DNA from: a virus
Lineage: Duplodnaviria; Heunggongvirae; Uroviricota; Caudoviricetes
DNA length: 18,486 nucleotides
Virus record (IMG/VR): IMGVR_UViG_2880406838_000002
Coordinates: 1-18,486 of that record
Reading direction: 5' to 3' (one strand)
Of the stretch, positions 1 through 3,000 are shown piece by piece. Position 1 is the stretch's first letter. Each line of letters begins with the position of its first letter. The position numbers were made by a program.

Positions 1-3000
1 TTACTTCTTCGCCTCTGCAACCACTTTACTACCCACGCCGCGGTTATTGTATTCCCACATGCGGTTGTAGTTAGTGTCATTCAGATTGCGCTGTATTTCG
101 TCGTTATCATCTACGCTGCCGGTATTACCCGCAAACGGACGATTAGAGATCACCGCATCGGCCCACGGTTTAGCCGTGTTAAAACCTTCGTTGATGGCGC
201 TATCACGGATCACCACCTGACCGTTGGTATTGGCATCAACATCCAGCGAGCGGCCCAGTTGCGCCACACCATCACCGAAAGCATTGAAACGGCTGTTTAC
301 GGCGAGGAAACCGTAGTAAATGTTGGACAGCGTAGCCGGTGCAAACACATACGCTTCTTGCTGAGTACGTGAGTTCACCACGCGGAATTCGGTGTTATCG
401 AACACCACTGCGCCGCGACCAGAAACGATATCCACATCCCCTTCAATGTAGCTGTTGCTCACCAGCGTACGCGGCTGACGATTCGTTTCCAGACGGTTCT
501 GCACACCGCTGTTGGTGACAAAGAAGGTGTTCTGACGACCGAGAATGTTAACGTTGTTAATCTGTACCTGGTCACCATCAGTACGCAGTGCCACCGCCGG
601 ATGGTTACCTGCATCTACGCTATCGCCCAGCGTGTTTTCGATGGTCAGATTTTGCAGTTGCAGGCCATTGTTTTGTGACCAGAAGACCGCAGAGCAGAGA
701 ACACCGATACTGTCGCTGCGTTTGCTCTGGCAGCTATCGTACATATACCACGCTGGTTTACCTGGCATATATTTGCCGCGCGGGTTGACGTCGTGACGCC
801 AGTCGGCAGGGCTCATGCCACCATCAAGGGAAAGCCCAATCTTCACATCAATCGGTTTTTCACCTGTACCGTACAGAGTAATTCCACCCGGAGCGGCAGG
901 GACATATACCGTTCCCTGATACTCACCAGGCATCACGGCAATATACTGGCGCTTGTTGGTACGCTTGATAATTGCCGCATCTACCGCCGCCTGAATCGTG
1001 GTATGCGTTACACCTTGAGTGCCCGCCGGGCCGACAACAAAGTCAGGTTGCGCAGGCAGGGTAATCGGGGAAGGATTCCACGCTGCTGCACCTGGTGTCA
1101 GGGATGCAAAATAGTGTTGAGCATCGAAATTCTGCGCTTCTTTTGCCGACAGAATCGGGCGAGAAGAGGTACCAGGCGCGGTTTGATCAGAAGGACGTTG
1201 ATCGGGCGGGGTTGAGCTACAGGCGGTCAGCGTCACGCCAAAAGCCAATGCCAGCGCCAGACGGGAAACTGAAAATGTGTTCACAGGTTGCTCCGGGCTA
1301 TGAAATAGAAAAATGAATCCGTTGAAGCCTGCTTTTTTATACTAAGTTGGCATTATAAAAAAGCATTGCTTATCAATTTGTTGCAACGAACAGGTCACTA
1401 TCAGTCAAAATAAAATCATTATTTGATTTCAATTTTGTCCCACTCCCTGCCTCTGTCATCACGATACTGTGATGCCATGGTGTCCGACTTATGCCCGAGA
1501 AGATGTTGAGCAAACTTATCGCTTATCTGCTTCTCATAGAGTCTTGCAGACAAACTGCGCAACTCGTGAAAGGTCGGCGGATCCCCTTCGAAGGAAAGAC
1601 CTGATGCTTTTCGTGCGCGCATAAAATACCTTGATACTGTGCCGGATGAAAGCGGTTCACGATGAGTAGATGCAATTATGGTTTCTCCGCCAAGAATCTC
1701 TTTGCATTTATCAAGTGTTTCCTTCATTGATATCCCGAGAGCATCAACATGCAATGTTGTAGGGATGGCAATTTTTACGCCTGTTTTGCTTTGCTCGACA
1801 TAAAGATATCCATCTACGATATCAGACCACTTCATTTCGCATAAATCACCAACTCGCTGCCCGGTAACAACAGCCAGCTCCATTGCAAGTCTTAGCCAAC
1901 ATGGTGATGATTCTGCTGCTTGATAAATTTTCAGGTATTCGTCAGCCGTAAGTCTTGATCTCCTTACCTCTGATTTTGCTGCGCGAGTGGCAGCGACCGG
2001 GTTTGTTGTTATATGGCCTTCAGCTATTGCCTCTCGGAATGCATCGCTCAGTGTTGATCTGATTAACTTGGCTGACGCCGCCTTGCCCTCGTCTATGTAT
2101 CCACTGAGCATTGCCGCAATTTCTTTTGTGGTGATGTCTTCAAGTGGAGCATCAGGCAGCCCCCTCCTTATTGCTTTAATTTTGCTCATGTAATTTATGA
2201 GAGTCTTCTGCTTGATTCCTCTGCTGGCGAGGATTTTTTCGTAGCGATCAAGCCATGAATGTAACGTAACAGAATTATCACTGTTGATTCTCGCTGTCAG
2301 AGGCTTGTGTTTGTGTCCTGAAAATAACTCAATGTTGGCCTGTATTGCTTCAGTGATTGCTATCCTCCTGTCTCGGCCTAATCCAAACTCTTTACCCGTC
2401 CTTGGGTCCCTGTAGCAGTAATATCCATTGTTTCTTATATAAAGATTAGGGGGTAAATCCCGGCGCTCATGACTTCGCCTCGTCCAGCACCACATCCAGT
2501 TACCCTGCTCATTGTTGCCCCCACAAACAGACTTCACGCTCAATCTCGCGGCGAGTCATCAGCCCTTTCCATTGCTTACCGCCAGCGTATGTCCAGCGCC
2601 GTAGCTGATCACATGCGCCTTTGATATCGCCCTGGTTTATTTTGCGAAGAAGCGTCGATGTTCTGAAATTGCCAGCGCCCACGTTGTAAACGAACGAGTA
2701 AAGAGCGCCGCGCGTTGTTTCCGGTATATCGACGTTGATGTACGGGTTAATTTGTCTGGCGACCGTGGCAAGGTCTTTATTCAGGAGGGCTTTGCATTCT
2801 GCTTCGGTATACGTTTTACCGGGCATGATGTCTTTTCCGGTGTGTCCGTGACATACAGTCTGAACCGCCCCGGGTTTCCTGGAGAGTGTTTTATCTGTGA
2901 ACTCAGGCTGCCAGATCATCGTTTCCGATGGAAGCATAATAAGCTTTTTCTGCTTCTGCCGGAGGAGTATGGCCCAGCCTTCCCAGCAATCGTCGATTGT

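Follow-up and report, generated by a model that had tools for sequence, protein, structure and literature searches.

An integrase gene fused to an inverted late-gene block in the att-lambda prophage of EHEC O111:H8/H-, a probable scar of inversion and deletion

In lambda, int and the endolysin gene R lie 20 kb apart on opposite strands, whereas in a stretch of viral DNA of 18,486 nucleotides (hereafter the window; positions 1 to 18,486 of IMG/VR record IMGVR_UViG_2880406838_000002) a lambda-type int lies immediately downstream of R on the same strand. The original prediction, made from the sequence alone, read this arrangement as an inverted lysis cassette fused to an integrase gene whose own start had been replaced, and proposed that the element was thereby locked into the chromosome under selection for its cargo genes. 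How did such a fusion arise, and what does it mean for the mobility of the element that carries it? The window matches genomes of O111 strains (110512, 11128, and others) at 99.9-100% and is the prophage at att-lambda (ybhC|ybhB) of EHEC O111:H8/H-. Very probably, the fusion is an inversion and deletion scar in this decaying lambda-like prophage, which has become fixed in Shiga-toxigenic E. coli O111; prophage decay of this sort is ordinary.

Sequence of the junction

The features at the junction are as follows, the parental comparison being with the prophage of E. coli E2865 described below:

2499..2512, minus strand: Rz remnant ATGAGCAGGGTAAC, 14 nt from the start of the i-spanin gene; homology with the Rz genes of Stx phages and of E2865 stops at 2499
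2481..2498, minus strand: filler TGGATGTGGTGCTGGACG, 18 nt, similar to neither parent and carrying the new int start ATG
1419..2480, minus strand: lambda-type int from codon 4 to the stop (window 1-2480 against E2865, 99.96%; PF09003, PF00589)
2435..2512, minus strand: chimeric ORF of 25 codons, by translation, running from the native Rz ATG out of frame over the int start

The 3' end of R reads GGG CAA CAA TGA, with the stop codon at 2511-2509 of the minus strand, where it had been predicted, and the Rz start codon (ATG, 2512-2510) shares bases with it in an ATGA overlap. Five codons of Rz had been thought to persist; 14 nt are indeed homologous, but the fifth codon is ACT in the window and ACC in the parent, and the agreement of the two in specifying threonine is coincidental. 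On the other side of the filler, homology to lambda-type int begins with AGG CGA AGT, equivalent to lambda codons R4, R5, and S6, from position 2480 downward, consistent with the start of similarity originally placed around codon 4-5. As parental homology ends at 2480, the native int start, which overlaps xis, is gone along with the promoters pI (inside xis) and pL. The int frame now opens with an ATG at 2495-2493, within the filler; this start codon lies 14 nt past the R stop and has a usable Shine-Dalgarno sequence (AGGG) 7 nt 5' of it; the chance expectation for such an ATG in the filler is about 8%. An ORF scan, a reading of the minus strand, and local alignments detected no xis between int and R, and xis is not annotated anywhere in the elements of strains 11128, E2863, or 110512, in agreement with the predicted loss of xis and of the native int start.

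The search for a source of the filler yielded none in the window and the compared loci with up to 4 mismatches allowed, none in GTDB species representatives, and nothing above chance k-mers in the 50-kb E2865 prophage, while IMG/VR returned 10 chance matches and otherwise only the same element (L007). An inverted 9-mer of the filler occurs ~100 nt into Rz, but the match cannot be extended and is no better than chance. Nor do the two breakpoints show microhomology or inverted repeats in excess of chance (local score 6, null mean 6).

Distribution of the junction

Of 5,426 complete genomes, exactly 45 carry the junction, and every one of these belongs to the O111 lineage. Because it is identical in these 45 independent complete genomes and an index of public assemblies lists the exact 358-residue Int protein in 4,242 blocks, the Rz'-filler-int fusion is real and not an assembly artefact. 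None of 50,697 phage records matched the junction query at a coverage of at least 80%, and within IMG/VR the junction was found only in the same O111-type element. The 5' end of int occurs in 1,926 other genomes, where the match starts only at the int part of the query, and among the matches listed xis lies upstream of int in 15 of 15 of those genomes. That the order is a native phage architecture, with R/Rz directly upstream of int, or else a misassembly, therefore has a negligible probability: no point in favor of either was found, the phage records and the 1,926 genomes argue against the former, and the latter is contradicted by the recurrence of an identical junction in 45 genomes finished independently and in thousands of assemblies. 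Since no natural phage with R/Rz upstream of int was found, and the genes of E2865, the nearest relative, are in canonical order, the reading of the junction as a secondary fusion stands.

A natural int allele that starts with MWCWT and has xis upstream was also considered and was rejected, as the combination of filler and int is confined to the 45 junction genomes.

We have seen the junction as a single origin, with no parallel events so far, and the arrangement marks one clonal lineage. Being peculiar to the O111:H8/H- att-lambda prophage, the 18-nt filler makes the junction a precise, lineage-specific structural marker. The O111 SMRT paper (PMC6602927) does not discuss the junction.

Comparison with an uninverted relative

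In the bovine E. coli E2865 (NZ_AP018808, 887-942 kb), the same site holds a near-identical prophage whose genes follow the canonical lambda order. Window positions 1-2480 correspond to 159-2638 of the E2865 locus (L019) at 99.96%, a difference of 1 nt in 2,480, whereas positions 2499-2860 correspond to 26860-26499, reversed, at 100% and positions 4169-11466 to 26503-19194, reversed, at 99.45%. The mismatches within the block concentrate in two mosaic patches, outside of which the divergence is ~0.1%. This alignment to a prophage at the ybhC site therefore places the breakpoints between int codons 3 and 4 and between Rz nt 14 and 15, and shows the block from Rz' to nin to be inverted, bearing out the prediction that the lysis cassette had been turned relative to int and fused to it. 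The block and its main components are:

2499..12369, minus strand: inverted block with Rz', R, S, nanS-p, two small ORFs, pR'/tR'-like signals, Q, lpxR (on the plus strand), and nin genes (reversed collinearity with E2865 L019 26860-15159)
2509..2860, minus strand: 3' part of endolysin R, a phage-21-type SAR endolysin, rrrD-like (100% identical to E2865 L019; the intact E2863 copy matches PF00959)
4171..4319, minus strand: 5' part of endolysin R (ORF scan and E2865 alignment)
4319..4525, minus strand: class II holin S, phage 21-type (PF04971, E = 1.2e-32)
8227..8310, minus strand: predicted pR'-like promoter (8310-8282) and tR'-like terminator (8248-8227) just downstream of Q (consensus scan)
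8294..8983, minus strand: late antiterminator Q (PF06323, E = 1.1e-91)

The orientation of this block is opposite to that of the canonical prophage map, while the remainder of the element in 11128 and E2863 keeps the canonical orientation ('portal, head, tail, nleH, cif, espJ, and an attR core adjoining ybhB). The O111 and E2865 prophages share their site, Q, lpxR, nanS-p, S, R, nleH, cif, espJ, and attR, and many RefSeq proteins are identical in the E2865 prophage (Q, LpxR, RrrD, NinH, NleH). They differ in that E2865 is canonical and has xis, the early-left genes, cII, O, P, a full Rz, terminase, and portal, whereas in the O111 element the ren-to-Rz' block is inverted and the remaining such genes are deleted.

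The holin (PF04971) and lysozyme (PF00959) DNA is 99-100% identical to that of Stx2 phages such as 1717 and 2851. Compared with the phage 21/Stx-phage lysis cassette, however, that of the O111 element is incomplete: the holin gene is intact, but Rz is broken after 14 nt, so that Rz1 is lost also, and in the window R is split by IS629. By consensus scan, the predicted pR'-like promoter is the only recognisable phage promoter remaining upstream of S-R-int. Late-region genes and signals still in the window are the nin region, Q, the pR'/tR'-like signals, nanS-p, and S.

Integrase and attachment sites

The int side of the junction adjoins an intact left attachment site and the chromosome:

1..1284, minus strand: ybhC, chromosomal gene on the gal side of att-lambda (ORF; RefSeq annotation in 11128, E2863, and 110512; PF01095)
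1331..1445, plus strand: attL, with the 15-bp core GCTTTTTTATACTAA (1331-1345) and the P' arm (115 of 115 positions identical to the lambda attP core and P' arm)

The Int protein (MWCWT-RRSHERR..., 358 residues, RefSeq WP_000263438) is identical to E2865 Int from R4 to its end. Relative to lambda Int it is identical at 351/356 positions over residues 4-356, the six catalytic residues and the arm-binding domain included, and differs in having, in its flexible N-terminal tail, the filler-encoded MWCWT in place of lambda residues 1-3 (MGR). The catalytic hexad is kept (R212, K235, H308, R311, H333, and Y342), and Pfam identified the catalytic domain (PF00589, E = 2.1e-40) and the arm-type DNA-binding domain (PF09003, residues 5-71 on profile positions 3-74 of 74, E = 3e-31).

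The element also shares the ybhC|ybhB integration site of lambda, and its attL is intact as predicted, core and 100 nt of P' arm being 100% identical to lambda. The right site, attR, is outside the window; its core adjoins ybhB in 11128 and 110512. The P arm of attR is only ~85% identical to that of lambda, yet it is identical to the arm of the xis+ relative E2865, the whole attR matching at 324/325 positions. The prophage thus retains attL and attR with an identical 15-bp core and cognate arms. O111 genomes also contain a second prophage remnant, at yfaT, which encodes an Xis with one change (G58S) from the cognate protein. An HK022-type Int class was among the IMG/VR matches listed for the native xis-int overlap and pointed to the yfaT prophage.

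IS629 copies and later gene loss

Two IS629 copies lie in the window:

2861..4170, minus strand: IS629/IS1203 copy 1, which entered R by simple insertion and is flanked by a duplicated 3-bp target, GTC (2858-2860 and 4171-4173; ORFs, E2865 alignment, IS-end comparison)
12370..13678, plus strand: IS629 copy 2, without a target duplication, bordering the inverted block (alignment, IS-end comparison, Pfam)

Copy 1 contains an ALIL pseudoknot by Rfam, and IS629 frameshift pseudoknots were all that Rfam and tRNA scans returned. Past copy 2 are a C-terminal tail-fibre fragment and then the effector cargo, nleH, cif, and an NleG-like gene.

Could IS629 have made the junction itself? Copies in Rz and at the xis/int overlap might have recombined, the junction copy then being excised (e.g., by the EHEC IS-excision enhancer) to leave an 18-nt footprint. 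The region is full of IS629, an IS borders the opposite end of the inverted block, and inversion between IS copies is demonstrable in strain 14614, in which window positions 2859-18486 are flipped between inverted copies. However, the closest IS629 end to the junction is at 2861, as the original prediction had noted in placing the junction away from an IS end; the breakpoint has no 3-bp target duplication, the filler has no resemblance to the IS629 termini (TGAACCGCCCCGGG... and ...CCCGGGGCGGTTCA), and an IS is retained at the junction in 0 of the 45 genomes. We consider this origin improbable.

IS629 activity is evident in later changes. The insertion into R is present in 33 of the 45 junction-bearing genomes and R is intact in E2863; the predicted loss of a working endolysin accordingly applies to the window, but as a separate, later event. 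In E2863 the inverted block ends at ren and is followed by an IS3-family element and then by mid-portal sequence (L019 32425). In sister strains, an IS629-like element occupies the expected site of the reciprocal junction, and xis-to-P and Rz-to-portal are deleted. The lack of immunity, replication, head, and tail genes, also proposed originally, is true of the window, but head and tail genes persist in sister strains 11128 and E2863. The loss of head, tail, and replication genes is secondary and IS-associated, and it differs between sister strains. In 11128 cif is frameshifted, and the NleG-like gene likewise.

Proposed history of the element

The ancestor would have had the order of E2865 (attL-int-xis-early genes-O-P-ren-nin-lpxR-Q-nanS-S-R-Rz-terminase-portal-tail-nleH-cif-espJ-attR). 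It would then have been broken between codons 3 and 4 of int and after nt 14 of Rz, and a non-homologous intramolecular inversion would have set Rz'-R-S-nanS-Q-nin head-to-tail upstream of int and on its strand, the broken ends being sealed with the 18 nt of filler, untemplated or of unknown source. A deletion bordered by an IS629-like element would later have taken the reciprocal junction (xis-int'|'Rz) together with xis-to-P and Rz-to-mid-portal, and subsequent IS629 events in sub-lineages brought the insertion into R, the loss of head and tail genes, and the inversion in 14614. The data show the orientation of the block, its breakpoints, the filler, the distribution of the junction, and the order of events. 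We can only infer this two-step history, a clean two-break inversion and then a deletion, because the reciprocal junction was never seen (0 of 5,426 genomes with a synthetic xis-int'|'Rz query). A single complex event that combined inversion and deletion would leave the same picture, as would import of the inverted block from a co-resident sister prophage.

Excision, integrase expression, and cargo genes

The O111 element retains its two att sites and an Int ORF of nearly full length, and it has no cis xis, spanin, immunity, or replication genes. Such a prophage should be unable to excise on its own, that is, it should be "grounded". As attL x attR excision requires Xis (PMC4880445), the proposed locking of the element into the chromosome is mechanistically reasonable; we regard it as plausible and no stronger, because of the near-cognate xis in the yfaT remnant.

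None of the native promoters of int is left, pI lying in xis and pL having been upstream. Started by a fortuitous ATG in the filler, int is the last ORF of the residual late operon and most likely survives as a relic with little or no expression. The ORF is perfectly conserved and has a usable Shine-Dalgarno sequence, which would be equally expected if Int were still used. Along those lines, int might have been rewired, with Int made as the last Q-dependent product of the late operon (or by read-through from IS629) and without Xis; a domesticated, lambda/HK022-arm-compatible Int could act in trans, for example helping lambda-att phages to integrate, or with the Xis of the yfaT remnant could occasionally mobilise the effector island. 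We think there is only a slim chance of this.

Did selection favor the grounding? Prophage grounding is a known phenomenon, and grounded prophages have been argued to be generally favored (PMC6379469). Under adaptive immobilisation, removal of xis and crippling of lysis would have been selected for locking in the cargo (nleH, cif, nleG-like, espJ, and lpxR), which would fit the keeping of both att sites and int while xis is gone, the fixation of the junction across the sampled O111 lineage, and the exact conservation of the neo-start Int. Hitch-hiking or drift, however, predicts fixation in one clonal lineage equally well, and the flanks, at a single difference in 2,480 nt to the uninverted relative, give no power to test for selection. 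In addition, the endolysin insertion came later and is in only 33 of 45 genomes, the cargo itself is decaying in some strains (the frameshifts in 11128), and E2865 holds the same cargo with xis present. Adaptive immobilisation is thus unlikely, although somewhat less so than an IS629 origin of the junction or a rewired Int, and the claim of selection for cargo retention is unsupported.

Relation to other decaying prophages

The prophages of O157 strains Sakai and EDL933 have decayed through insertion of IS629, deletions next to IS copies, and inversions, while keeping their morons and T3SS effectors. The same processes, and the keeping of morons and T3SS effectors, link the O111 element to the grounded or cryptic lambdoid prophages as a group (EHEC Sp/CP-933; K-12 DLP12, Rac, and Qin) (PMC6379469). 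No new kind of system is revealed here and the main value of the finding is bookkeeping, but it illustrates step by step how a lambdoid prophage with effector genes would be immobilised, a non-homologous inversion severing xis and IS629 then eroding the element stepwise. What sets the O111 element apart from those prophages is that its predicted excision defect traces to an inversion that broke precisely at the xis/int overlap, away from any IS end, and left behind an int ORF that looks intact but begins at a new start codon. This explains why automated annotation places an apparently intact integrase beside a lysozyme gene, and cautions against taking an intact int plus att sites as proof of mobility.

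Organization of the prophage

Megablast placed the window in EHEC O111:H8/H- chromosomes, with the whole of it covered in strain 110512 (99.9%) and positions 1-12369 covered in 11128 and many other strains (100%). It is the defective lambdoid prophage at att-lambda, between ybhC and ybhB; the protein assignments of its genes were borne out by Pfam.

Features of the window
1-1284, ybhC (ORF listing)
1331-1345, lambda attachment core GCTTTTTTATACTAA
1419-2495, minus strand, lambda-like int
2509-2860, phage lysozyme gene R, 3' part
2861-4170, IS629/IS1203 copy 1
up to 4319, R, 5' part
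4319-4525, phage-21-type holin gene S
4973-6823, nanS-p esterase
8294-8983, Q
9460-10419, plus strand (opposite to its neighbours), lpxR (lipid A 3'-O-deacylase) moron
between lpxR and IS629 copy 2, nin genes
12370-13678, IS629 copy 2
3' of IS629 copy 2, effector genes nleH, cif and NleG-like
18106-18486, beginning of IS629 copy 3

The lpxR moron, which has a truncated antiterminator fragment on one side of its insertion site and Q on the other, is conserved in E. coli strain E2865 and all O111 copies. Between pR'/tR'-like signals and nanS-p lies a gene (7366-8124, minus strand) for a predicted membrane protein of 252 aa, which had no match in the Pfam scan and is given as PF27470 (TfpB) in the public index; in Stx phages this slot is occupied by stx instead. 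Within the effector cargo region, an ORF fragment (16046-16417, minus strand) labeled in RefSeq as an incomplete, frameshifted hypothetical is similar to a phage integrase N-terminus and may have been left by some other integrated element. The cif gene (15092-15922, plus strand) is intact in the window and 110512 and frameshifted in 11128, and both sister genomes have the NleG-like/DUF1076 gene (16980-17435) annotated with a frameshift.

The junction between the lysis genes and int

The original prediction had int running directly from the end of the lysis genes, a description that proved accurate base by base when the minus strand was read and aligned. R ends with GGG CAA CAA TGA (stop, 2511-2509), and the Rz ATG (2512-2510) overlaps the R stop. 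Identity to the Rz of related phages ends after 14 nt, at 2499, and is followed by an 18-nt filler, TGGATGTGGTGCTGGACG (2498-2481), that agrees with neither parent; identity to lambda-type int restarts at 2480 with AGG CGA AGT, lambda codons 4-6. A new ATG for the int frame lies inside the filler (2495), giving a product of 358 aa that reads MWCWT and then RRSHERR, the same as in the RefSeq annotation, and a chimeric ORF of 25 codons from the native Rz ATG crosses the int start out of frame. The claim of an intact attL was also correct, as its core and P' arm are identical to lambda (115/115).

A phage family with R/Rz naturally upstream of int, the alternative raised at the outset, was found nowhere among 50,697 phage genomes: none spans the junction, matches being confined to the R/Rz half of the query, and a natural gene order was consequently rejected. 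In IMG/VR the filler 18-mer occurs in one contig of the same element, its ten other matches being unrelated, chance ones, and filler plus int was found in no GTDB species representative. An assembly artefact was rejected as well, because the junction is present in 45 of 5,426 complete E. coli genomes (a filler-int 48-mer is in exactly the same number) and public assemblies contain the exact 358-aa Int in 4,242 indexed blocks, where lysozyme (or IS-split lysozyme) and ybhC flank it at every place among those listed. The 45 genomes come from O111:H8/NM/H-/H2 strains together with a few bovine, veal, and human isolates that are untyped. Another 1,926 genomes match the int part alone, with xis upstream in all 15 among the matches listed.

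Comparison with the E2865 prophage

The E2865 copy of this prophage occupies the same site and keeps the canonical lambda order: ybhC, attL, int and xis (both minus strand), early-left genes, cII, O, P, ren, nin genes, lpxR, Q, nanS-p, S, R, and Rz (all plus), then Rha, terminase, portal, tail genes, nleH, cif, espJ, attR, and ybhB. Many RefSeq proteins are identical between the E2865 and O111 prophages. By local BLAST, window 1-2480 corresponds to E2865 locus 159-2638 (99.96%), 2499-2860 to 26860-26499 (reversed, 100%), and 4169-11466 to 26503-19194 (reversed, 99.45%); between the sister strain E2863 and E2865 the inverted block has 40 differences, concentrated in two mosaic patches, with ~0.1% divergence elsewhere. 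The matches therefore place the breakpoints between int codons 3 and 4 and between Rz nt 14 and 15, and show that, compared with both flanks, the block reaching from Rz' back to the nin/ren region is inverted. The structural part of the original prediction, an inverted lysis block joined to int, is right.

In 11128 and E2863 the remaining prophage is canonical in orientation (3' half of portal, head/tail genes, effectors, and attR adjoining ybhB), and the O111 attR is identical to that of E2865 at 324/325 positions. Their inverted block stops at ren; beyond it come an IS3-family element and mid-portal. Both flanks expected for the second inversion junction are therefore gone, one running from xis to P, the other from the remainder of Rz through the 5' half of portal. 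The absence of xis was correctly called, lysozyme/Rz' and the filler lying directly 5' of int. A synthetic query for the reciprocal junction had no spanning match in any of the 5,426 genomes.

The simplest history is a two-break non-homologous inversion, its ends joined with filler, after which a deletion bordered by an IS removed the other inversion junction. No inverted microhomology was found at the breakpoints, no filler template in the window, the loci compared, or the E2865 prophage, and neither an IS terminus nor a target duplication at the junction; all three fit the two-step history, and because of them the earlier view that an event other than IS629 transposition made the junction stands.

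Later IS629 activity

The predicted loss of a working lysis enzyme holds in that R is split in the window, but this was a separate, later IS629 event, seen in 33 of the 45 junction genomes. Copy 1 arose by simple insertion and is flanked by a clean duplication of 3 bp, GTC (2858-2860 / 4171-4173), and in E2863 R is intact directly upstream of int; the frequency of the insertion and the intact R show that the endolysin disruption is younger than the fusion. Copy 2 has no target duplication. Its position is 1.37 kb further into the nin region than in 110512, it replaces all head/tail genes still kept in 11128 and E2863, and, compared with 11128, it marks a deletion extending from ninE/ninB to the tail-fibre gene. 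The ALIL frameshift pseudoknot (Rfam RF01497) is found in each of the two complete copies. In strain 14614 (NZ_CP077460), window 2859-18486, from copy 1 to copy 3, is in the opposite orientation relative to ybhC-int-'R, which indicates that inverted IS629 copies recombined homologously and flipped the segment. Step by step, IS629 activity is eroding the element.

The original prediction saw selection to lock in the cargo. This reading is unsupported, because the fusion is one clonal event with near-zero sequence divergence to test on, independent IS events caused the loss of the lysis enzyme and structural genes later on, and the effector cargo is itself decaying in some strains. The fusion is a well-resolved case of ordinary EHEC prophage decay and not a new system.

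Integrity and expression of Int

Int is identical to E2865 Int from R4 to the end. Its five differences from lambda Int (N129S, H164P, A245T, I248V, and R276H) are allelic and avoid the catalytic hexad, and its match to the arm-binding domain profile begins at position 3; on these grounds the protein could be active. The gene lacks pI (inside xis) and pL, and Q lacks pR; the sole recognizable phage promoter upstream, by consensus scan only, is pR'-like and lies immediately downstream of Q together with a tR'-like terminator. AGGG is located 7 nt 5' of the new int ATG, and ribosomes initiating at the native Rz ATG, 17 nt upstream, would pass over the int ATG out of frame. As a random 18-nt filler is expected to supply an in-frame ATG in ~8% of cases and any start codon in ~22%, the preserved int ORF is not evidence of selection.

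Excision

Lambda-type excision requires Xis, which bends the P arm, loads Int on P2, and bridges attL and attR (PMC4880445). Because the element lacks xis in cis, it is expected to be a "grounded" prophage (PMC6379469). A second lambdoid prophage, also decayed, is present in O111 genomes at yfaT/yfaA, adjoining gyrA (NC_013364, 2,904,486-2,929,894; locus L148).

Genes of the yfaT prophage (L148 locus coordinates)
12055-12273, xis
12251-13321, int, HK022-like

Its Xis is one residue (G58S) from the cognate E2865 att-lambda Xis, and its Int is identical to the window Int at 269/358 positions, the arm-binding domain being identical from residue 4 through 57. Possibly this prophage is a source of Xis in trans, complementing the att-lambda element, with expression of its xis doubtful because no early-left control genes are annotated upstream.

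The attR P arm of the window phage lineage (11128 attR locus L016, 16380-16564; E2865 attR locus L140) is ~85% identical to that of lambda, having TAGTAACTAT at the P2 arm site where lambda has CAGTCACTAT, and differs in the Xis/H2 region too. Since it is identical in the xis+ relative E2865, the divergent P arm is a native variant rather than a product of decay.
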